Of a DNA stretch of 32,000 nt, positions 2,412-28,895 are shown in pieces. The DNA comes from Gemmata obscuriglobus (GTDB lineage: Bacteria; Planctomycetota; Planctomycetia; Gemmatales; Gemmataceae): positions 990,001 to 1,022,000 of the forward strand of contig NZ_CP042911.1 in the NCBI RefSeq assembly GCF_008065095.1. Reading direction: 5' to 3'. The first letter of the stretch is position 1, and every line of letters starts with the position of its first letter. The translations under genes and the position numbers were made by a program. The notes below the pieces were generated by a model. The model did no database searches and was not told the DNA's origin. It saw only the letters and a program-made list of their open reading frames with translations.

Positions 2412-4820
2412 TTATTTCTTCGCGCCCTTCACGTACCGGTCGAACCACGCGATCTGCTCGTACAGCACGTGCCCGATGGACTCGCGCGCGGCGTAACCGT
2501 GGTCCTCGTGCGGGAGCAGCACCAGCCGCACCGTACCCCCGGCGCCGCGCACCGCCTGGTACATCCGCTCGCTCTGCACCGGGAACGTGCCCGGGTTGCT
2601 GTCGGCGGCGCCGTGGATCAGGAGCAGCGGCTCCTTGATCTTGTCCGCGTAGTAGAACGGCGACATCCGGCCGTACACCTCGGGCGCCTCCCAGAACGTG
2701 CGGCGCTCGTTCTGAAACCCGAACGGGGTGAGCGTCCGGTTGTACGCCCCGCTCCGCGCGATCCCCGCCTTGAACAGGTCGCCGTGCGCGAGCAGGTTCG
2801 CGGTCATGAACGCGCCGTAGCTGTGCCCCATCACCCCGACCCGCGCGGGATCGACGCCGAGTTCGGCGGCCTTGTCGAGCGCCGCCTTCGCGTTCGCGTT
2901 GAGCTGGTCCACGAAGTTGTTGTTCGCGGTTTCCGGCGGCCCCACGATCGGCATGGACACTTCCATCACCGCGTACCCCTGGGTGAGGAAGAACAGGTGC
3001 GAGTACCCGCTCACGGCGGTGAACCGGTGCGGCGACCCCGTCACCTGCCCCGCGGTGTCGGCGGACGCGAACTCCACCGGGTACGCGTAAAACACCCCCG
3101 GCACCTTCTCGCCGTCCTTGTGGCCCGGCGGCAGGTGCAGCGTGAACGAAATGGCGGTGCCGTCCGCCCGCTTCGTGGTCACGAGCTGCTTCTTCGCCTT
3201 CCGGAGTTCCGGCGCGGGGTCGGCGTTCGTGGTCAGCGGCTTCTCGTGCGGGCCGTCGCGGAAGAAGTAGTTCGGCGGCTCGCTCACGGACTCGCGCCGG
3301 ACGAGCAACTTGGTCCCGGTGCCGTTCAGCACCCGGACGACCTCTTCGTAACTCCCCTCCGGGCAGTGGAACAGGCGCTCCGCCTTCTGCGTCCGGAGGT
3401 CGTACCGGTCGAGGAACGGGCGGTCGCCCTTCGGGCTCGCCCCGTCGCCCTTCATGAAAATGGTGTCGCCCGCCGGGTCGCCGGCGGTGCGGATCACCGA
3501 GTGCCCGCTCGGGAGCTGGCGCAGCAGCGGCGCGCCGGGGTCGCCGTACCGGTCCTGCACCGAGCGCTCGAACAGCAGCTTCGGCTCGTCCGCGAGGACC
3601 GGGCTGCTCGCCGCCAGGAACGTGCGGCCCCACTTGCGGTCGCGGTCGTAGTCGCGGACCAGCATCCGGTTGCCGGTGGGGAAGAAGTCGAGCCCCGCGA
3701 ACCGGTGCTCGACCTTCATCAGCTCGGTGCCCGTGACCGCCTCGCCGCCGACGGTCGCGGTGACGATCGCGTCGCGGTGCGGGACCTTCTTCTTGGGGTC
3801 GCCGTCGTCCCGCGCCTCGGCCCAGATGAGCGCGTGCGGCAGGGTCGGGACCCACCGGATCGCGCGGGGGCCGGTCGGCACGCCCTCGATCGGCACCTTG
3901 TCCTGGAGCGGCAACTCGGCGACGGTCGCGGACCGCTCCCCGCTCGACTTGAACACCTCGACGGCCCGCGGGAACGCGGTGTACGGGTGCAGGTACGAGA
4001 ACGGCTTCTGCGCGCGGAACGCCAGGACGAACTGGCCGTCGGGCGAGGGGTCGGAGCCGATGTTGATCGCCGGCCGCCCCACGTTCCGGACCGTCGGGTT
4101 GCCGGGCTCCCCGCTCACCACCGCGAGCTGCGAGGTGCAGTAGTACTCGAACAGGGCCGCGTCGTGCGGGTCTTTCAGGAGGTCCTGGTAGGTGCGCACG
4201 GGCGCCGCCGTGCCGCCGCTCTCTTGCACCACGGGGCCGACGGGCGCGGCCGGGGGCCGGGGGGCCTCGCCGCGCCCGTCGGGCACCAGTTGCACGAGCA
4301 GCGACCGCCCGTCGGGCATCCACTGGACGGACGAGCCGACCGCCGCGCTCAGCCGCACGCCCTTCACCGGTTCGAGCTTCGGATCGTCGAGCGCGCACAC
4401 CCACAGCTCGATGCCCGCGTCGGTAAAGTTCTCCACCGCGAACCGCTTCCCGTCGGGCGCCCAGAGGGGGAACCCGATCCGACCGTGTTCGGGCAGGGCG
4501 AGCGCCTTCGGCTCCCCGCCGGTGACCGGCAGCAGGGCCAGCCCGGTGGCCCGCGCCGGGCGGGCGGGGCCGTTGGTCTTGGGGTTGATGCGCAGCCCCG
4601 CGAGCCGCAGCATCGGCGCCGCGACCTCTTCAATCGAGGGGTAGCGGGCGGTCTGCACCAAGAGGATGTGTTCGCCCGTGGGCGAGACCGAGAGGCCCGG
4701 GGGGGCGGGCGCGTCGAGGATGTCGAGCACCGCCTGCGGCGGCTTCTGGTAGCCGTCCTGACCGAACGCGTCTACGGAACTGAACAACACGAACACCCCG
4801 CACAAGAACGCACGCAACAT
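2412..4820 (-). CDS. S9 family serine peptidase (prolyl oligopeptidase / acylaminoacyl-peptidase-like), secreted
   Basis: The ORF is 802 aa with an N-terminal signal-like segment MLRAFLCGVFVLFSSVDAFGQ and a long beta-propeller-like N-terminal region. The C-terminal alpha/beta hydrolase carries the GHSYGAF nucleophile elbow, LLIHGAADSN (Asp) and PHEDHGY (His). Confidence 0.85.
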   Translation of the reverse strand: MLRAFLCGVFVLFSSVDAFGQDGYQKPPQAVLDILDAPAPPGLSVSPTGEHILLVQTARYPSIEEVAAPMLRLAGLRINPKTNGPARPARATGLALLPVTGGEPKALALPEHGRIGFPLWAPDGKRFAVENFTDAGIELWVCALDDPKLEPVKGVRLSAAVGSSVQWMPDGRSLLVQLVPDGRGEAPRPPAAPVGPVVQESGGTAAPVRTYQDLLKDPHDAALFEYYCTSQLAVVSGEPGNPTVRNVGRPAINIGSDPSPDGQFVLAFRAQKPFSYLHPYTAFPRAVEVFKSSGERSATVAELPLQDKVPIEGVPTGPRAIRWVPTLPHALIWAEARDDGDPKKKVPHRDAIVTATVGGEAVTGTELMKVEHRFAGLDFFPTGNRMLVRDYDRDRKWGRTFLAASSPVLADEPKLLFERSVQDRYGDPGAPLLRQLPSGHSVIRTAGDPAGDTIFMKGDGASPKGDRPFLDRYDLRTQKAERLFHCPEGSYEEVVRVLNGTGTKLLVRRESVSEPPNYFFRDGPHEKPLTTNADPAPELRKAKKQLVTTKRADGTAISFTLHLPPGHKDGEKVPGVFYAYPVEFASADTAGQVTGSPHRFTAVSGYSHLFFLTQGYAVMEVSMPIVGPPETANNNFVDQLNANAKAALDKAAELGVDPARVGVMGHSYGAFMTANLLAHGDLFKAGIARSGAYNRTLTPFGFQNERRTFWEAPEVYGRMSPFYYADKIKEPLLLIHGAADSNPGTFPVQSERMYQAVRGAGGTVRLVLLPHEDHGYAARESIGHVLYEQIAWFDRYVKGAKK

Positions 4821-6114: not shown

Positions 6115-6678
6115 TGGGGTTCCGCGGCGCGCGGTGCCATCAGTCGTGTGATGGACAAGATTCCCCCACCGATCGCCGGCTTCCCCTCCGGACCGCGTCC
6201 GCCATCCGCCCGGACGGCGCCGCAACGAGGCTCCCGTACCGCACGTGGGTGCCCCGCTGGGGCGCAGACGGGACATTCGCTGACGGTCGACTGCTCACGG
6301 GCTACCCGTTCGCTGGGCGGTCGCTACCCACGAATTTTCAGCCCGAACCGCATGTGGAGCGGCGGAACGAGCGGAGCGAGGTCCCGGCGTCGCATCTCTA
6401 TCGCGACGCAAATGCTTGCCAGGACGGCGATTGCAAGAATAAGCCGGCGCGACCGGGAACGCGCGGGCGGTTCTCGCAGCCCGTTCGTGGCGTGCGCACC
6501 GTTGTGCCACAAAAGGGAGCCGCGAGCCCCGCTGCCAGTGGATCCGGGCCGCGCAACCTCTTGCAGTCGCTGCACCTTCCCGCTCCGGCCAGTTCTTCAG
6601 CCCCGGCCCGAAATCCTGTGCTACGGTTCCCCTAGTTCGTTCGCACCCGCTACCCCTCCGCACGACGGGGCACGCCCG

Positions 6679-9600
6679 ATGTCTGTTCGTTTCGAAGCCC
6701 AGGTCGAGCCGATCTCGGGCTACAAACTGCTCGACCGACTCGGCGCCGGCGGGTTCGGCGAGGTGTGGCGCTGCGAGGCCCCTGGCGGCATCTTCAAGGC
6801 CATCAAGATCATCCACGGCGACCTGCGGTCCCGGGACAACGACTTGGTGCGGTACGCCGAGCAGGAACTCAAGTCCCTCAAGCGGGTCCAGCAGGTGCGG
6901 CACCCGTACCTGCTCGCGCTCGACCGGTACGACATCGTCGACGGCCGGCTCATGATCGTGATGGAGCTGGCCGACTGCAACCTGTGGGACCGGTTCCGCG
7001 AGTGCCGCGACCGCGGGCTCCCGGGCATCCCCCGGGACGAGCTGCTCCAGTACATGACCGAGATCGCCGAGGTGCTGGACCTGTTCAACGACCAGTTCCA
7101 GCTCCAGCACCTGGACATCAAGCCGCAGAACCTGTTCCTCCTGTACAACCACGTGAAGGTGGCCGACTTCGGGCAGGTGAAGGACCTCCAGGGGCTGATG
7201 GCGGAGGTGACCGGCGGCATCACCCCGGTGTACGCCGCCCCCGAGACGTTCGACGGGGTCATCACCCGCTACTGCGACCAGTACAGCCTGGCCTGCGTGT
7301 ACCAGGAGCTGTTGACCGGGGTGCGGCCGTTCGACGGCAGCAGCATGAGCCAGTTGCTCATGCAGCACCTGAACCTGCCGCCGAACCTGACCCCGAGCCC
7401 GCCGAACGACCGGCCCGCGCTCGCGCGCGCGCTGTCCAAGAAGCCCGAAGACCGGTGGCCCAACGTCGCCTCGCTGGTCCGCTCGCTCGCCGGCGCGCCG
7501 GCCCCCTCGGGCGTCTTCCCGAAGTACCCCGCGGCGGACAACGACACGCCCACGATGATCGGCCTGCCGCCCAACATCGCTCCGCCCGGCGCGGCGGCGG
7601 CGGCGCTAGTGTCGGTCGCGGACGACACCCCGTCGCGCGGCGGCGAGATCTACGGCCCGGTGTTCACCCCGGCCCCGCCGGAACTCGGCGGCGACGGCCC
7701 GCTCCAGCCCGCGATCGTCATCGGGCTGGGGAACGCCGGGCTGCGGGTGCTCCAGCGGCTCCGGTTCGAGCTGCACGAGCGGTACGGCCCGCCCGCGACC
7801 ACGCCGGCGCTCCGCACGCTGTACATCGACACCGACCCGGACGGCCTGGAGGAGGCCGGGCGCGAGCGGTTCGGCGACCGGCTCGCCGCCCTCGGCAGCG
7901 ACGAGGTGTTCCCCGCCCGGCTGAACCGGGCCGGCCACTACCTCAAGCCGCGGTTCAACGGCCGCTCGCTCACCGAAGGGTGGTTCGACCCGCAGCTCCT
8001 GTACAAGCTCCCCCGCAACCCGCTCACCCTCGGGGTGCGGCTGTTCGGCCGGCTCGCGTTCCTGGACCACTACCGCTTCATCATGGCGAAGGTGCAGGCC
8101 GAGATCGACGCCGCGGTGGCCCCCGACGCGCTGCTGCTCACGGAGGCGCGGACCGGGCTGAAGCGGCGCACCAACCGGCCCCGGGTGTACGTCGTCGCCG
8201 GCACCGGCGGCGGCACCGGCGGCGGCATGTTCCTCGACCTGGCGTACGCGGTGCGCAGCCGGCTGAAGCGCATGGGCTACGACCGCCCGGACGTGCGCGG
8301 GCTGATGGTGGTCCCGCCCGCGGACGCGACGCTCACTTCGCCGCAGGCGCTGGGCAACACCTACGCGGCCCTCACCGAGCTGAACCACTACAGCCGGCCC
8401 GACACGGTGTTCACCGCCCACTACGACGAGCGCAGCGGGTTCGTGAAAGAGACCGACGCGCCGTTCGCGCGGTGCTACCTGCTGCCCGGGCCGGCGGCCG
8501 GCCCCAGTTCCCCGCCGGGCTCGGGCGTCAGCCCGGTGGCGCGGCGCACCCCAACGAACATCCCGAACCCGGGCGCGCGCCCCCGGCCCGGCTCCGGGGC
8601 GGCGAACAAGCCGGGGTCGCGGGTGATCTCGCTCGCGGCCCAGCGCACCCCGGACCCGAGCGCCGCCCTGTCCGCGCTCCGGCCGTTCGGCGACGCGGCC
8701 GAGCGCATCCGGCTGGACCTGTTCGCCCAGGTGGGGCGGGCCGCGGACGAGGCCCGGGCCGCCGAAGAACACGACCGGGACGAGCGGCCCCGCGGGGTGA
8801 CGGTCGGGGCGTTCGGCATCGCGACGTTCGACTGGCCCCGGGCCGAGGTGGTGTCCCGCACCGCCGCGACGGTGGGCCGGGCGCTGCTCAAGCGGTGGGC
8901 CGCCCCGGACCTCAAGCGGGTGCGCGAGCAGATGCCCGGCATCGCGGCCCAGCGGTGGACCCAGCTCGGGCTGGACCCCGACACGATACTCGGGCACCTT
9001 CAGTTCGCCGCCGAACAGGCGGCCGGCGGGAAGATCGACGAGCGGGCGGCCGCGGCCACCGAGCCGCTGGTCCCGCGCGGGTGGCTGAACCGGCTCCCGG
9101 AGCCCACCCAGGTGGGCGTCGCCCTCGACACCATCAACCGGCTGCTGGGACCGCCCGCCGCCGCGCTGAAGCGCCCGCTCACCGCGCTCGAGGAGGCGGT
9201 CGCCAAGGCCGCCGCGGACGCCGCCGCGTCGTTCGCCCTCGACCTCCGCACCCTCGCGCCCGTTCTGGTCGACGACGCCGAGTTCCGGCTGGCGGGCACG
9301 GAGGAGCTGTTCCGCCAGTTCCTCGCGACCACCGACCGGCTGATCGAGCGGTACACGCAACTGGCGGCCGAGCTGGACGCGAAGGCGGTGAGCGGGTTCG
9401 AGTGCCTGTCGCACTACGCCCACTACCAGCGGGGCATGTGGAAGCCGAGCGCCGCGGAGCTGACCGACGCGCTGCGCCTGTACCCGCGGGCGCGGTTCCA
9501 GGCGGTCACCTTCCGGCAGCTCGTCGGCGCCTACCAGACCGTCCGCGACACGCTGAGCGAGCAAGTCGCGGACGTGGCGGTGGCGCGGCAGCGGATGGCG

Positions 9601-10275
9601 GCCGCCGCGGCGAGCGTGCCGGAGGAGCCGCCGGAGCCGCCGGTGTCGCTGCGCCGGCTCATGCCCGCCGGGTGCGTCAGCCTCGGCGACGCCGTGGACC
9701 GGTTCCTGAAGGTGCTCACCGACGCGGACCTGGCGGAGATCGACCGCCGGGTGCAGGCGGTGCTGGAGCCGGAGACCGGCGGGCTGTTCCAGGTGTGCCT
9801 GAACTCGTCGGCGGGCGTCGAAGGGGTCATCGCGGTGGTGTTCGAGGAGACCCGGCTGCACCTCGACCGGCGGCTCGGCGAGGTGGGGCTGGCGGCGATG
9901 TTCGCCGAGCGGTTCCGCACCCCGCAGCAGGCCGAACGCGCGATCGAGCAGGCGTACCAGGAGGCCGAGCCGGCGTGGGTCGGCAACGGCCCGTGGGCCG
10001 GCTCGGAGGTGACCGTCCTCGCCTGCCCGGCCGGGGCGTCGGGCGAGGCCCTGCGCGAGCTGGCCCGGCGCGCGATCCCGGTGGCCGGGCTCCCGATCGC
10101 GGAGAGCCGCGACGACCTGACCATCTACCGCGAGTGGGCGTCGGTGCCGCTGGCGGCGCTGCCGCACCTGGGGCCGGCCGCGGCCGACGCGTACCGGACG
10201 ATCCCGGAAGTCGCCCAGTGCAGCGCGCACGCCCGGCTCGACGTCACCGCCTGGCTCGACGTGGACGCGCCCTGA
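6679..10275 (+). CDS. Ser/Thr protein kinase fused to a tubulin/FtsZ-like GTPase domain and a long helical C-terminal region
   Basis: I prefer ATG 6679 (MSVRFEAQVEPISGYKLLDRLGAGGFGEVW), because the in-frame upstream extension to 6148 has poor GC3 and an Arg/Ser-rich nonsense-like translation. Kinase motifs are GAGGFGEV, FKAIKII, HLDIKPQN, VADFG and VYAAPE. Downstream come IVIGLGNAG (nt 7723-7740) and VVAGTGGGTGGGMF (nt 8197-8226), the latter matching the tubulin signature [SAG]GGTG[SAT]G. The protein is 1198 aa from 6679. Confidence 0.85.
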   Translation: MSVRFEAQVEPISGYKLLDRLGAGGFGEVWRCEAPGGIFKAIKIIHGDLRSRDNDLVRYAEQELKSLKRVQQVRHPYLLALDRYDIVDGRLMIVMELADCNLWDRFRECRDRGLPGIPRDELLQYMTEIAEVLDLFNDQFQLQHLDIKPQNLFLLYNHVKVADFGQVKDLQGLMAEVTGGITPVYAAPETFDGVITRYCDQYSLACVYQELLTGVRPFDGSSMSQLLMQHLNLPPNLTPSPPNDRPALARALSKKPEDRWPNVASLVRSLAGAPAPSGVFPKYPAADNDTPTMIGLPPNIAPPGAAAAALVSVADDTPSRGGEIYGPVFTPAPPELGGDGPLQPAIVIGLGNAGLRVLQRLRFELHERYGPPATTPALRTLYIDTDPDGLEEAGRERFGDRLAALGSDEVFPARLNRAGHYLKPRFNGRSLTEGWFDPQLLYKLPRNPLTLGVRLFGRLAFLDHYRFIMAKVQAEIDAAVAPDALLLTEARTGLKRRTNRPRVYVVAGTGGGTGGGMFLDLAYAVRSRLKRMGYDRPDVRGLMVVPPADATLTSPQALGNTYAALTELNHYSRPDTVFTAHYDERSGFVKETDAPFARCYLLPGPAAGPSSPPGSGVSPVARRTPTNIPNPGARPRPGSGAANKPGSRVISLAAQRTPDPSAALSALRPFGDAAERIRLDLFAQVGRAADEARAAEEHDRDERPRGVTVGAFGIATFDWPRAEVVSRTAATVGRALLKRWAAPDLKRVREQMPGIAAQRWTQLGLDPDTILGHLQFAAEQAAGGKIDERAAAATEPLVPRGWLNRLPEPTQVGVALDTINRLLGPPAAALKRPLTALEEAVAKAAADAAASFALDLRTLAPVLVDDAEFRLAGTEELFRQFLATTDRLIERYTQLAAELDAKAVSGFECLSHYAHYQRGMWKPSAAELTDALRLYPRARFQAVTFRQLVGAYQTVRDTLSEQVADVAVARQRMAAAAASVPEEPPEPPVSLRRLMPAGCVSLGDAVDRFLKVLTDADLAEIDRRVQAVLEPETGGLFQVCLNSSAGVEGVIAVVFEETRLHLDRRLGEVGLAAMFAERFRTPQQAERAIEQAYQEAEPAWVGNGPWAGSEVTVLACPAGASGEALRELARRAIPVAGLPIAESRDDLTIYREWASVPLAALPHLGPAAADAYRTIPEVAQCSAHARLDVTAWLDVDAP

Positions 10276-15299: not shown

Positions 15300-15415
15300 G
15301 CGATATTTTCCGATGGCCGATTCGATGTTGATTTCATAGCGGCTTTTTGGCATGCTGAAATCCGGGCACTGAGCCCGTGTCGAAATGTCGGAACCGAACG
15401 GAGGATTCGACGGTC

Positions 15416-15958
15416 ATGTGGAACCCACCCCCTGAGCACCCGCTGCGGCGGCTGTTTGCGGGGCTCGCCGAACACGCCTTCTTCTCCCATCTCGGCGTGG
15501 CCGACCCGCCCCTGACTGATTACCTCTCCTCGCTGCTCACCCGGTTCATTCACAACGACGCCGTGTTCCGACTGCGCGGCGACGGCGGTCAACCGCTCAC
15601 CGAGCTGACCGACATGGTGGTCGAAGCCGCGCGCCTCCCGGCGGGCGGGCGCACCCAGTGCGACTACTACCGCCACATCGGGGACTTCGCGCTGTTCTGG
15701 ACCGGGGTGTACCCGGAGGCCGTCGAGCGGATGCGGGCGCGGGCGTGCAAGGACGCGTTCGTGAACTACACCGCCCAGGGCAAGCGCGGGTACATGCTCA
15801 CCAGCCGGCTCGAAGAGGAGCGGCACCACGACGAAGAGGCCGGGCTGTTCCGCCGGCTGAGCGACCAGTTCGAGGTGTGCGCGCTGGGGCTGCGGAAGGT
15901 GCGCGAGGAGTGGGAAGAGATGCGGTCCGCGCCGCCAGGTGGCGGGGTGATCGGGTGA
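15416..15958 (+). CDS. hypothetical protein (180 aa), no domain recognised
   Basis: ATG 15416 is preceded by GGAGGA (15400-15405). GC3 is high. The translation is MWNPPPEHPLRRLFAGLAEHAFFSHLGVADPPLTDYLSSLLTRFIHNDAVFRL...; I recognise no family. Confidence 0.6.
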   Translation: MWNPPPEHPLRRLFAGLAEHAFFSHLGVADPPLTDYLSSLLTRFIHNDAVFRLRGDGGQPLTELTDMVVEAARLPAGGRTQCDYYRHIGDFALFWTGVYPEAVERMRARACKDAFVNYTAQGKRGYMLTSRLEEERHHDEEAGLFRRLSDQFEVCALGLRKVREEWEEMRSAPPGGGVIG

Positions 15959-15966
15959 CCGGCGCG

Positions 15967-16245
15967 AACGGCCCGCACGCCGAAACGTGCGGGCCGTTGT
16001 GCTGCGTCGGGTTGCGTCTACTTCTCGACCCGGTTCGCGGAAGGCTCACGGCACCGCCGGGCTGAATTCACCGGCGCCCGGTGCGGAACCACGACCTACG
16101 GGGTTGTACCAGCCCGCACCGGGCGCCGGTGAATTCAGCCCGAAAGCGGTGCTGGAACAGCCTTCCCCGAGTTGTGTGCGAAGCCATTCGCTCGGCCGAC
16201 GCAACATCGGCCTGCTGCAAGGCAGCGAGCTAAACGCGAACCCGA
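15967..16245. ncRNA. structured repeat element, copy A (four hairpins H0-H4; transcribed strand unknown)
   Basis: H0 is 15967-15998 (13-bp perfect stem). A conserved TACTTCT lies at 16019-16025 and GCTCACGG at 16044-16051. H2 is 16051-16152 (7+3+26 bp stem with a 3-nt bulge and a 27-nt apical region). H3 is 16194-16212 and H4 is 16214-16226, followed by a conserved GAGCTAAAC tail. It is homologous to copy B, with compensatory changes (see findings). Confidence 0.65.
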
Positions 16246-16285
16246 TGCACGCACTTTAACCGCACCCCGCGCGGGCCGCAAGCGG

Positions 16286-17158
16286 CTACTTCTTCGCCGG
16301 CGCGGGCTTCAGGTACTTGGGCAATTCAGACGGGTCCAGATCGACCTTCGCGCCCTCCTTGGGCACGTCCACGCCCGCGGCCCAGAGGATGCCGTTCACC
16401 AGCAACCGCCGGTAGCCCTCCTCCGCGAAGCTGGCGTGCAGGTGCGCCCCAGTAAACGTGAACGCCCGCCCGCCCTCGGGCCGCTCGTAGGTCCACGCGA
16501 CCACGTCCTGCCCGCCGGTAGGTTTGGCGGTCGTCTTCGGGTTCCACGTCCGCAGGACCGGCGTCACGCCCTTCATGCCGGCAACGAACGTGTTCTTGAA
16601 CAAATAGCCGTCGTCGATCTTGAACGGCTTCACCCCGTTGCACACCGGGTGTTCCGGGAACCTGTCGAACGTCGTGACCCAGTGGGCGCGCTCGCCGGCA
16701 CCCTTCTCCCACGCGCCGCCGCTCCACTCCCGCGCCTTGGCGCCGAAGTCCTTTGGGTAATCGGCCGTCTGGTGGAACTGCACGAGCCCGGCCTTCGCGT
16801 CCATCAGCTTTTGCACCTGCGCGAGCCGCTCGCCCTTGAGCGCCTGGTGCTTCTCGGCCCCGTCGAACAGGAACACGACCGCCTTGGCGTTGTCGAGCGT
16901 GTCGGCCTTCTTGGGCCAGTCGAGCGCGAGCACGGGCGCGACGTTCGGGGTCTGCTTCAGCAGGTCCGCAAGAACCGCGCAGTTCGCGACGTAGTCGTGT
17001 TCGCCGGCCTTGTAGTAGTTCGAGCCGGCGATCAGGACGATCTTCGTCGCTTTCGGGTCGGCGGGCGGCTCGATCGGCGGGGCGTTTTTGGGCGGGTCGG
17101 CGGCCGCCGCGAGTGCGGGCATGATGAGCGCGGCGGCGAGGAGAGTGGCGTAGCGCAT
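16286..17158 (-). CDS. ThuA-domain protein, secreted (paralogue of 5038-6060)
   Basis: I prefer the ATG (CAT at 17156-17158) giving MRYATLLAAALIMPALAAAADPP as a signal peptide. KIVLIAGSNYYKAGEHDYVANCAVLADLL...AKAVVFLFDGAEKH...GLVQFHQTADYP is ThuA-like. GC3 is high. Confidence 0.75.
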   Translation of the reverse strand: MRYATLLAAALIMPALAAAADPPKNAPPIEPPADPKATKIVLIAGSNYYKAGEHDYVANCAVLADLLKQTPNVAPVLALDWPKKADTLDNAKAVVFLFDGAEKHQALKGERLAQVQKLMDAKAGLVQFHQTADYPKDFGAKAREWSGGAWEKGAGERAHWVTTFDRFPEHPVCNGVKPFKIDDGYLFKNTFVAGMKGVTPVLRTWNPKTTAKPTGGQDVVAWTYERPEGGRAFTFTGAHLHASFAEEGYRRLLVNGILWAAGVDVPKEGAKVDLDPSELPKYLKPAPAKK

Positions 17159-17215
17159 GAGTGGGGTTCCGAGAGGTGAAACCGCCCGAGCGTAACACAC
17201 GCACCGCAGAAACGA

Positions 17216-17490
17216 AACCGGGAAGGCGATCGCCTTCCCGGTTCGCGTGTCGGCCGTCGTTTACTTCTGAACCTGTGGTGCGGAGCGCTCACGGCACCGC
17301 CGGCGGCCCCCGCCGGTGGGGCCGTGCAGAACCACGAGCGGCGGGGTTCTTCCAGGCTGCACGGCCCCACCGGCGGGGGCCGCCGATAGCGGTGCTGGAA
17401 CAGCGCTCCCCGCGCGGGGTGTGAAGGCAGAAGCTCGGACGACGCAACATCGTCCTGTCGCAGAGCGACGAGCTAAACCGACGGACCGAC
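17216..17490. ncRNA. structured repeat element, copy B
   Basis: H0 is 17216-17243 (a 28-nt perfect palindrome, AACCGGGAAGGCGATCGCCTTCCCGGTT). TACTTCT lies at 17262-17268 and GCTCACGG at 17287-17294. H2 is 17294-17395, the same 102-nt length as in copy A. H3 is 17437-17455 and H4 is 17457-17469, followed by the GAGCTAAAC tail. Orientation is the same as copy A. Confidence 0.65.
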
Positions 17491-17551
17491 AAGCTTCGTT
17501 CGGAGTTTCTGGTTGTGCGGTGAGCGCACATCTCGCGCAGGGCGGGAGACT

Positions 17552-17749
17552 TTACGCTTTCAGTTCGACCGGGCGGCGCCAGCGGCGGAAGTCACGGATG
17601 CCGGCGTAGATGCCGTAGCTCATCATTCCGAGCACGAACACCGCGACGGCCGCGAAGATGGCGTGCTCGGTCATCCCGTCCGGGTAGTCGCGGCCGTTGA
17701 TCTCGACTTTGAAGAAGGCCTCCGCGTGGTGCGCGAACAGGCTCAGCAT
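17552..17749 (-). CDS. small hypothetical membrane protein (65 aa)
   Basis: The translation MLSLFAHHAEAFFKVEINGRDYPDGMTEHAIFAAVAVFVLGMMSYGIYAGIRDFRRWRRPVELKA has one clear TM helix followed by a basic tail. Nearly every codon ends in G/C, as in the confident genes. It is divergent from the histidine kinase gene. Confidence 0.55.
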   Translation of the reverse strand: MLSLFAHHAEAFFKVEINGRDYPDGMTEHAIFAAVAVFVLGMMSYGIYAGIRDFRRWRRPVELKA

Positions 17750-28676: not shown

Positions 28677-28895
28677 TCAGCCGGTGCCGTCGGTCTCGTC
28701 CGGTTGGCCGCCGTTCGTCACCGCCGGGGCCTTGGCCCCGTGGATCGCGTCGTACACTTCCTGCCGGTGAACCGGCACGTCCTTCGGGGCCGCGATGCCG
28801 AGCCGCACCTTGTCCCCGCGGATCTCTACCACCGTGATGACGATGTCGTTGTTGATGACAATCGACTCGTTTTTTTTCCTGGACAGCACGAGCAT
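28677..28895 (-). CDS. csrA: carbon storage regulator CsrA (RNA-binding translational regulator)
   Basis: MLVLSRKKNESIVINNDIVITVVEIRGDKVRLGIAAPKDVPVHRQEVYDAI aligns along its length with the canonical CsrA sequence (MLILTRR.GE...IGD.I.V.V......VR.GI.AP..V.V.R.E.Y). A ~20-aa tail follows. A GGAAAG Shine-Dalgarno-like motif lies upstream. Confidence 0.9.
   Translation of the reverse strand: MLVLSRKKNESIVINNDIVITVVEIRGDKVRLGIAAPKDVPVHRQEVYDAIHGAKAPAVTNGGQPDETDGTG

Follow-up and report, generated by a model that had tools for sequence, protein, structure and literature searches.

In canonical retrons the reverse transcriptase (RT) is encoded in the same transcript as the template RNA, just downstream of it, and the complementary DNA (cDNA) of the known multicopy single-stranded DNAs (msDNAs) is 48–163 nt long; reverse transcriptases can act in trans. 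The template RNA has 5' and 3' ends that are complementary over 8–30 nt (PMC6868368, PMC7736814), with the priming G belonging to a conserved AGC where the stem so formed ends on its inner side (PMC6868368), and it contains two opposing G residues (PMC7736814). The msr region folds into 1–3 stable hairpins with stems of ~7–10 bp and loops of 3–10 nt, while the msd forms one long hairpin with a stem of 10–50 bp (PMC6868368, PMC7736814). Known msd stems usually contain mismatches or wobbles, and mismatched msDNA stems are harmful through the titration of MutS (PMC6868368). Here we describe a family of structured RNA genes represented by two copies, A and B, in a 32,000-nt stretch of the Gemmata obscuriglobus genome (assembly GCF_008065095.1, contig NZ_CP042911.1, positions 990,001 to 1,022,000 of the forward strand), which is referred to as the window and numbered from its first letter. 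On the basis of sequence comparison we propose tentatively, as a serious possibility that falls a little short of being probable, that this RNA is built and works like a retron msr-msd template that is served by an RT in trans.

Copies A and B are paralogues, each a stand-alone gene for a structured RNA of ~250 nt on the minus strand of the window. Read 5' to 3', the RNA opens with the terminal stem and an invariant AGC, continues through a three-way junction and a variable linker into a long arm, and closes with a conserved single-stranded linker and the 3' arm of the terminal stem. The same order of parts (terminal stem, AGC, opposing G, short hairpins, long hairpin and 3' arm) is found in retrons such as Eco1/Ec86 and Mx162, and the local UUAGC context is the same as that in Ec86 (CCCUUAGCGAG). 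The family has the complementary 5' and 3' ends, the AGC directly after the stem and the opposing G, priming itself being predicted; it has msr-like hairpins, two of which, P5 and P4, possess stems slightly shorter than the published range; and it has a single long msd-like hairpin, which is atypical in being mismatch-free and hypervariable. The predicted cDNA, at ~148 nt, is within the size range of known msDNAs, and it is the long arm alone that displays the wobble polarity of a complementary strand. In contrast with retrons, there is no RT in the transcript or within 4–8 kb of it, a terminator or an unrelated gene following instead, and each genome contains dozens of dispersed paralogues rather than one locus. 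Because the cassette contains no RT the family falls outside the retron definition on that point, and is therefore said here, tentatively, to work like, rather than to be, a retron RNA. The msd-like stem also differs from those of retrons in that it is hypervariable between paralogues, fixed in length and free of mismatches, and the name of the host phylum, Planctomycetota, is absent from the retron census (PMC7736814).

To assemble the family, one genome per species was scanned with a two-anchor DNA pattern, which found at least 120 loci; two-anchor patterns were used because a single 17-mer gave 12 matches in IMG/VR that were all chance occurrences inside coding sequence. Among the matches listed, ~113 of the 120 loci belong to Gemmataceae and other Planctomycetota, the hosts including Gemmata sp. 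IIL30 (at least 17 loci in this single genome), G. algarum, metagenome-assembled genomes (MAGs) of Frigoriglobus, and MAGs labelled Isosphaera or Singulisphaera. The remaining seven occur in unrelated phyla with odd spacings and look like chance matches. We extracted 96 full-length copies with extended flanks. A profile search (nhmmer) of the collected loci and the window, which recovered all copies in the collected sequence, gave 123 matches, 107 of them long and exactly two in the window. Mean scaffold identity between copies is 78%. The family is new: Rfam 15 returned no match in the window at the gathering score, in line with the initial annotation of this DNA, which had recognized no named RNA family, and literature searches on RNA families of Gemmata or Planctomycetes turned up no account of this one. 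When both strands were scanned with Rfam at E<=10, the 22 matches were of generic microRNA (miRNA)-precursor models or unrelated small RNA models to the bare hairpin, far below threshold.

At the level of copies A and B, all that the initial annotation had stated about the sequence is reproduced. The conserved blocks GCTCACGGCACCGCCGG and AGCGGTGCTGGAACAGC are the same in both copies, and exact occurrences in the window are confined to them. The 26-nt arms of the long stem are exact reverse complements in copy A (16061–16086 and 16114–16139) and in copy B (17304–17329 and 17357–17382), and the identity between the arms of the two copies is as low as had been claimed, the exact figure being 9/26 rather than ~10/26. 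The eight differences between the 45-nt segments 16191–16235 and 17434–17478 do consist of three compensatory pairs and two loop changes. Ungapped identity between the copies is 73% outside the variable arms and 35% within them. Both elements fold with exceptional stability, at -198.6 kcal/mol for copy A (z = -13.2) and -197.6 kcal/mol for copy B (z = -12.9), and in neither case was any of 200 shuffles as good. In the earlier anatomy an outer closing stem (16003–16020/16231–16248 in copy A) had not been described; in the minimum-energy folds its sequence is unlike between the two copies while the pairing is kept.

The fold was evaluated on an alignment (A2) of 56 copies in RNA orientation, gap-free over 256 columns, using a structure of 83 pairs. 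In these copies 92.3% of the cells are paired, compared with 71.1% in shuffles and 35–44% when the partners are slid. Changes on both sides occur in 55 of the 83 pairs, and the observed values were reached by none of 500 shuffles. RNAalifold independently produced essentially the same fold, with 77 pairs of which 47 contain compensatory changes. Thus, the view that selection acts on secondary structure over sequence, previously argued from two copies, is supported by 56 homologues. The highly conserved three-way junction consists of a GCUC/GAGC stem, P5 (5 bp with a 3-nt loop) and P4 (6 bp with an invariant 7-nt loop, UGUUGCG), all of which are 98–100% paired; P5 pair 29/39 is C-G in 25 copies, U-A in 25 and G-C in 6, and P4 pair 44/58 is A-U in 26, G-C in 18 and C-G in 11. 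The terminal stem extends over ~14–20 bp, its inner five pairs being conserved or covarying (pair 21/236 is U·G in 33 copies, U-A in 15 and C-G in 7) while the outer part covaries between subfamilies. Directly after the last terminal pair, A23-U234, comes the AGC, with A23, G24 and C25 invariant in 56/56 copies, and G24 faces an invariant G233, again in 56/56 copies. Columns 222–225 and 230–233 of the single-stranded linker are invariant or nearly so. The long arm contains ~55 base pairs overall, broken by a bulge and internal loops, and is conserved at its base and tip. Columns 101/204 form an A·C mismatch, equivalent to G·T on the complementary strand, in 55/56 copies. The pairing register at the apical tip is ambiguous, with 154-162 and 155-161 as alternatives to the 155-163 pair of RNAalifold. 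Covariation was also observed for a non-canonical apical pair at columns 153/163 (16101/16091 in copy A), which is C·U, U·C or A·C in the RNA and becomes G·A, A·G or G·T when read on its complement.

The strand that is transcribed is indicated by signals at both ends of the element. In most copies the reverse complement of the plus strand of the window carries TTGCGn-N16/17-TAnnnT upstream, and 51 of 92 copies contain the more general TTGnnn-N16-18-TAnnnT in RNA orientation, compared with 2 matches on the opposite strand and a shuffle expectation of 2.5. Some copies have A-rich upstream elements. The -10 motif ends 20–24 nt before the conserved UUAGCUC, and given this fixed distance transcription would start at the first base of the 5' terminal-stem arm. 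A generic promoter scanner based on the consensus TTGACA/TATAAT flagged neither copy A nor copy B. Past the 3' arm most copies contain a GC-rich hairpin and then a U-rich run, and a crude count found such a combination in 37 copies in RNA orientation versus 21 in the opposite one. With promoter and terminator at fixed positions, each copy is therefore a stand-alone minus-strand RNA gene, and the hairpin that the initial annotation had included in the element as H0 is its terminator. Indeed H0 sits outside the folded core, and its AAC...GTT ends, which had been read as retained around unrelated stems, are not a shared motif but belong to unrelated terminator hairpins. Likewise, the plus orientation in which the element had first been read gives way to the opposite strand, a plus-strand RNA being ruled out by the promoter and terminator and by wobble polarity in the terminal stem and the short hairpins. 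A cis-regulatory leader or riboswitch was also rejected, as the copies lie in unrelated contexts and most have their own terminator, although a few orthologue groups do run into the downstream gene.

Independently of these landmarks, the likeness to retrons is supported by the wobble pairs of the RNA, which differ between its domains. Non-Watson-Crick cells were counted on one symmetric pair list, per helix group. In the inner pairs of the terminal stem together with the msr-like helices, 56 cells are G·U and 7 are A·C, whereas the conserved helices of the long arm contain 3 G·U and 18 A·C cells (3 versus 12 without the tip pairs 154-162 and 155-161), counts that leave out the mismatch at columns 101/204. 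The difference in polarity between the domains is significant by Fisher's test (p = 5e-10, or 1.3e-5 without the dominant column), although kinship between the copies makes these values optimistic, and the same outcome was obtained with a set of 89 copies. The folding energies follow the same pattern. The RNA strand is favoured in the terminal stem (54 versus 16 copies) and in the msr-like domain (71 versus 17), and the complementary strand in the long arm (77 versus 11 copies). An A·C pair on the RNA strand is a G·T pair on its complement, and a uniform mutational bias cannot reverse this polarity within 250 nt. The reversal is thus explicable by selection on the transcript in one part of the element and on its complement in the long arm, and the reversed polarity of the latter can be explained as what a reverse-transcribed msd would be predicted to display.

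Between the conserved base and tip of the long arm is a helix of 28–29 bp that is hypervariable, its sequence being different in nearly all copies. In columns 112–140/168–196, 28 of the 29 pairs covary and all four Watson-Crick types occur at similar frequency. The helix is 99.1% paired, G·U accounts for 3 of 1624 cells (0.2%), and 56 of 89 copies are mismatch-free over 29 bp. The flanking anchors are 87 nt apart in 73 of 95 copies, and 11 more deviate from this by no more than 1 nt. The arms are uncoupled from the scaffold, mean arm identity being 0.31–0.36 in all scaffold-identity classes. Thus the syntenic orthologues L032 and L036 have scaffolds that are 92% identical, and a non-coding flank, including the terminal stem, that is nearly identical, but unrelated arms (26% identical), while the six members of an orthologue group located upstream of one conserved gene have six different stems. 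Arm families also extend across unrelated scaffolds and genomes (L060/L076/L112/L046, L023/L047/L101 and L026/L083/L061), and the arms of L069 and L117, from the same MAG, are identical. It had been proposed that copies A and B diverged through ~16 compensatory substitutions in the long stem; the occurrence of unrelated stems in near-identical scaffolds means that the difference is better seen as the exchange of a whole cassette, and not as gradual substitution. Gene conversion or recombination between paralogues is the best explanation for the turnover of the stems, and perfect pairing is probably restored or kept either because one arm is copied from its partner or because mismatches are selected against. 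Five copies (L019, L065, L104, L109 and L118) contain two unrelated arms each and appear to be recombinants in which the crossover fell within the conserved apical core, and in L020 and L033 the distal hairpin is lost. A metagenome scan for close relatives of one locus returned only the same contigs and one further contig, which is near-identical and has an unchanged stem.

The arms are rich in palindromes. Internal inverted repeats are enriched (mean best stem 5.19 versus 3.85 in shuffled arms), 6-bp palindromes are about two-fold more frequent than expected (110 versus 52.7), and restriction-site-like hexamers (GAATTC, GCATGC, TGCGCA, TGGCCA and ACCGGT) exceed the shuffled expectation by up to ~40-fold, with 12 occurrences of GCATGC against 0.83 expected and 8 of GAATTC against 0.19. 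When the arm-enriched palindromes were compared with hexamer depletion in the genomes, in a mixed-species sample, the Spearman coefficient was +0.26, and the enriched palindromes are not the depleted ones.

These features can be placed on the minus strand of copy A as follows. The -35 hexamer TTGCGG (16276–16281), a position-fixed motif of the family, and the -10 hexamer TAAAGT (16253–16258) are separated by a 17-nt spacer and predict a start at ~16246–16248. The 5' arm of the terminal stem (a1-like; 16231–16248), which ends in UUA, pairs with the 3' arm (a2-like; 16003–16020), on the evidence of the fold and covariation. The AGC (16229–16231), which is invariant family-wide, contains G16230, the candidate priming (branching) guanosine, and the msr-like three-way junction, with its GCUC/GAGC stem, P5 and P4 supported by covariation, occupies 16190–16230. 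In the msd-like long arm (16036–16169), conserved basal helices, a UUU bulge (16143–16145) and the A·C mismatch (16153/16050) precede the hypervariable helix, the 5' strand of which (GGGCUGAAUUCACCGGCGCCCGGUGCGG; 16114–16141) is a perfect complement of the 3' strand (16059–16086); the two strands enclose the conserved apical core (16087–16113), identified in the alignment as an 8-nt bulge and a short helix, AACCCCG...CGUGGUU. The single-stranded linker CAGGUC-AGAAG (16021–16035), made up of conserved columns, ends at the opposing G16021. The terminator-type hairpin (15967–15998; the former H0) is in the position typical of the family, lacks a U-run on the minus strand, and may serve also as the terminator of the convergent plus-strand open reading frame (ORF) 15377–15958.

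Copy B is organized in the same manner on the minus strand. Its predicted fold places the 5' terminal-stem arm (a1-like) at 17474–17491, the msr-like domain at 17433–17473, with G17473, in the AGC at 17472–17474, as the candidate priming residue, and the msd-like long arm at 17279–17412, within which lie a UAU bulge (17386–17388), the variable helix (17357–17384/17302–17329) and the apical core (17330–17356). The conserved linker, the opposing G17264 and the 3' terminal-stem arm (17246–17263) fall within 17246–17278, and an intrinsic terminator (17205–17243) consists of a hairpin at 17216–17243 and then UCGUUUCUG on the minus strand. No clear promoter was found upstream of copy B, which starts ~60 nt past the stop codon of a 65-aa minus-strand ORF (17552–17749); the transcription of copy B may be supplied by this ORF. 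The ORF encodes a hydrophobic segment and is without a Pfam match or a homologue in the other loci.

Were the RNA to work like a retron template, an RT encoded elsewhere in the genome would bind the conserved msr-like domain, the presumed protein-binding part, and would prime synthesis from the 2'-OH of G16230 in copy A or G17473 in copy B. Reverse transcription would probably start near the opposing G, at ~16020–16022, and proceed rightwards (5'-TTCTCGACC...), so that the long arm would be copied into a single-stranded DNA hairpin of ~150 nt. From the dozens of paralogues would come a set of DNA hairpins distinguished from one another solely by the 28–29-bp stem. The RT, the cDNA and the function of the cDNA are components that we infer, and as no RT is found near any copy the enzyme would have to act in trans. 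A protein database search with the RT of Ec86 returned only proteobacterial retron RTs in the best 120 of 904 matches, and literature searches found no natural system in which an RT serves many retron RNAs in trans.

It should be emphasized that a number of observations weigh against this retron-like interpretation. No RT was found by phmmer, using the Ec86 RT as query, in six-frame translations of ~860 kb around ~114 copies and the window, nor by an RT motif scan of the same sequences, and an RT-linked 'master' copy in each genome would be expected to have been encountered a few times among ~114. The 22 Rfam matches obtained from both strands at E<=10 include no retron RNA family. G24, the candidate priming residue, could instead be simply the first base of the GCUC/GAGC junction stem, in which it forms a G-C pair in 49/56 copies. 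The stems are mismatch-free, in contrast with the mismatches or wobbles that are usual in known msd stems. The asymmetry of the long arm reflects few events (12 versus 3 outside columns 101/204), and because the sequences are related there are fewer events than cells and the p-values are optimistic. Finally, the tip pair 155-163 of RNAalifold (G·U in 33 copies, G-C in 15 and A-U in 6), if right, is paired in RNA style. There is a real chance that the family is something more distant from the retron type.

It could be argued that the transcript is an RNA-only regulator or decoy, perhaps descended from a retron, that is never reverse-transcribed and in which the double-stranded RNA hairpin is the working part. 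RNase III, one of the enzymes that the initial annotation had considered, might cut the hairpin to release a small antisense or guide duplex, or the helix might bind or titrate a double-stranded-RNA-binding protein, with the scaffold positioning the processing. Stand-alone genes with promoter and terminator and no RT nearby are what such a regulator would possess, its duplex of at least 36 bp has a conserved 3-nt bulge and an apical core that could act as rulers, the length of the stem is strictly fixed, arm families are common to several genomes, as expected of a specificity determinant, and the apical tip is RNA-style in the RNAalifold register. Selected RNA helices, however, normally tolerate G·U, which is close to absent from the variable stem, and the excess of A·C over G·U in the conserved helices of the long arm is unlike the rest of the same RNA. 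Palindromes inside the arms would be odd for guide RNAs, and searches of 833 kb of sampled genomes with the arms revealed no target, giving only chance-level matches of 14–18 nt and one imperfect alignment of 23 nt. On balance we regard an RNA-only function as rather unlikely, though a rival to be taken seriously.

The retron-like interpretation can be extended to a more specific and, in our view, improbable scenario, in which Gemmataceae maintain a natural 'retron library'. Here, a single RT acting in trans would serve dozens of dispersed, strongly transcribed template genes, the palindrome-rich stems would function as double-stranded DNA baits or sensors, and gene conversion would move stems from one paralogue to another. 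The targets of these baits would be sequence-specific enzymes of invaders, for example methyltransferases, nucleases or DNA-binding anti-defence proteins.

The genomic contexts of the copies bear on the remaining explanations. Around the copies no recombinase, HUH, transposase or integrase gene was found to recur, and no recurrent neighbour protein was found, the large protein clusters being only spurious ORFs that read through the element; whole-element BLAST against plasmid and phage collections found no match. Several loci are syntenic across genera. The gene between copies A and B encodes a ThuA-like protein on the minus strand, and locus L031 mirrors this layout, with a ThuA gene between two copies. 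Copy A is polymorphic. It is present in the window (15959–16285) and in L042 and decayed in L031 (4555–4799), while in L096 (~2551–2628) and L103 (~1379–1400) no copy lies between the same convergent genes, and filled and empty sites, when set side by side, give no sign of a target-site duplication. In L031, L096 and L103 the orthologues of copy B run directly into the ThuA start codon without a terminator, unlike copy B in the window, whose terminator hairpin (17205–17243) stands before the ThuA gene. In six genomes (L032 197–3739, L038 1944–5411, L036, L049, L062 and L122) a paralogue with an A-rich UP-element promoter and no terminator runs into a conserved gene whose product, of ~1094 aa, contains HEAT repeats and a BRCT domain; this gene could be a functional partner or merely share the promoter. 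One orthologue group lies inside proviruses predicted by IMG/VR, at L141 1255–1510 (the L035 locus of Gemmata sp. IIL30) and L140 3133–3406. In L141 a phage terminase small-subunit gene adjoins the copy, and an ABC-3C 'MC2' gene and an AAA_23 ATPase gene are nearby, while in L140 a terminase large-subunit (gpA) gene lies alongside and the long arm, including its base, has diverged. The RNA gene might be a phage integration site, as tRNA genes are.

A stem that is hypervariable within a constant scaffold, with a fixed, spacer-like length of 28–29 bp, and that turns over between related loci, is reminiscent of an immune memory in which foreign DNA is captured, stored as an inverted repeat and used as a hairpin guide against phages or plasmids, and the position of the orthologue group described above, beside prophage terminase genes and an ABC-3C defence gene, would be in keeping with such a role. 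We consider this very unlikely. When compared with 50,697 phage genomes at E<=1, 88 arms gave no match, and three arms had no exact match in IMG/VR, negatives that are weak because databases contain few Planctomycetota phages. Similar arms recur across genomes and scaffolds and are rich in palindromes, unlike random protospacers, and no acquisition machinery was found nearby.

Miniature inverted-repeat transposable elements (MITEs) and repetitive extragenic palindromes (REPs) are recognized by conserved terminal inverted repeats, target-site duplications and near-identical copies. A MITE had been named at the outset as an outcome that would take away the novelty of the element; copies of the present family, by contrast, have terminal repeats that differ and covary, no duplication and a mean scaffold identity of 78%, and several are syntenic across genera, and a MITE or REP was rejected. 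More broadly, an element that acts at the level of DNA (a miniature transposon, a REP-like palindrome or a recombination hairpin for an HUH enzyme or integrase), with transcription incidental, would account for many dispersed copies with terminal inverted repeats and a long perfect palindrome, for a variable stem that is Watson-Crick only, as in DNA, for the presence, decay and absence of copy A at related sites, and for the cassette-like flanking of one gene by two copies, but is given very little credence here, as the terminal repeats differ and covary with RNA-type wobble, and so are not conserved transposase-binding ends, promoter and terminator are part of the unit at fixed positions, the neighbourhoods contain no recurrent gene for a transposase, HUH enzyme or integrase, loci persist in place from genus to genus, no duplication separates a filled from an empty site, and plasmids and phages yielded no matches.

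Among the other genes of the window are those for an outer-membrane efflux protein, a histidine kinase and a sigma-54 activator, and no recombinase or RT gene was found within it. A plus-strand ORF of 1375 aa (6148–10275) contains both a Ser/Thr protein kinase domain and a bacterial tubulin-like (Tubulin_2) domain, and a 72-aa CsrA-family RNA-binding protein is encoded on the minus strand at ~28677–28895, a gene called on contigs that are identical there. Elsewhere in the family, the minus-strand element of L108 (near 3359–3616) has a hairpin-forming insertion of ~60 nt within P5.

If the retron-like interpretation is true, the family would be the first natural case of many template RNAs served by an RT that is encoded elsewhere, the first example of retron RNAs as a multigene family and the first in which the cargo stem of a retron is under diversification. 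It would bear on the open question of what the DNA part of a retron recognizes, and would provide a scaffold, tested by evolution, that tolerates arbitrary stems of 28–29 bp and is of use for retron-based DNA production and editing. Should the stems be a library of baits or sensors, they would represent an innate, diversified nucleic-acid repertoire of a kind undescribed in bacteria. If, on the other hand, the retron-like interpretation fails, a large, structured and evidently selected RNA family remains, in a poorly studied phylum. Either way a new mechanism is called for, as the helix is hypervariable, fixed in length and Watson-Crick only, unlike normal RNA helices. The analysis also shows that, when counted per helix, wobble polarity can tell on which strand of a structured element selection acts.

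Beyond the retrons, the family invites comparison with several other systems. Integron attC sites are imperfect palindromes of 57–141 nt with R''/L''-L'/R' boxes, located next to an integron integrase and attI. Like the subterminal hairpins of IS200/IS605, they are single-stranded DNA hairpins read by recombinases, and both resemble the present element in that structure is kept while sequence varies and in that two elements flank one gene. The unit described here differs in being ~250 nt long and multi-helix, with its own promoter and terminator, in having its conserved sequence at the tip and base of the hairpin along with a separate three-way junction, and in that no integrase or TnpA was found near the copies. 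An attC site was rejected on the size of the unit, its other architecture and the lack of an integrase, the box consensus not having been formally scored. Eukaryotic pri-miRNA and short hairpin RNA genes are similar in that many paralogues each carry, within a constant scaffold, a near-perfect hairpin that varies in sequence but not in length. The family differs from these in that it is bacterial, with no link to Drosha, Dicer or Argonaute shown, in the near absence of G·U and in its Rfam scores, which are far below threshold. With engineered retron arrays ('multitrons' and library recombineering), the family would share the use of one conserved msr scaffold for many msd cargos and of one RT acting in trans. 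These arrays are synthetic, and their cargo replaces the loop and encodes editing donors, whereas in the Gemmata family the variation is natural and resides in the paired stem.

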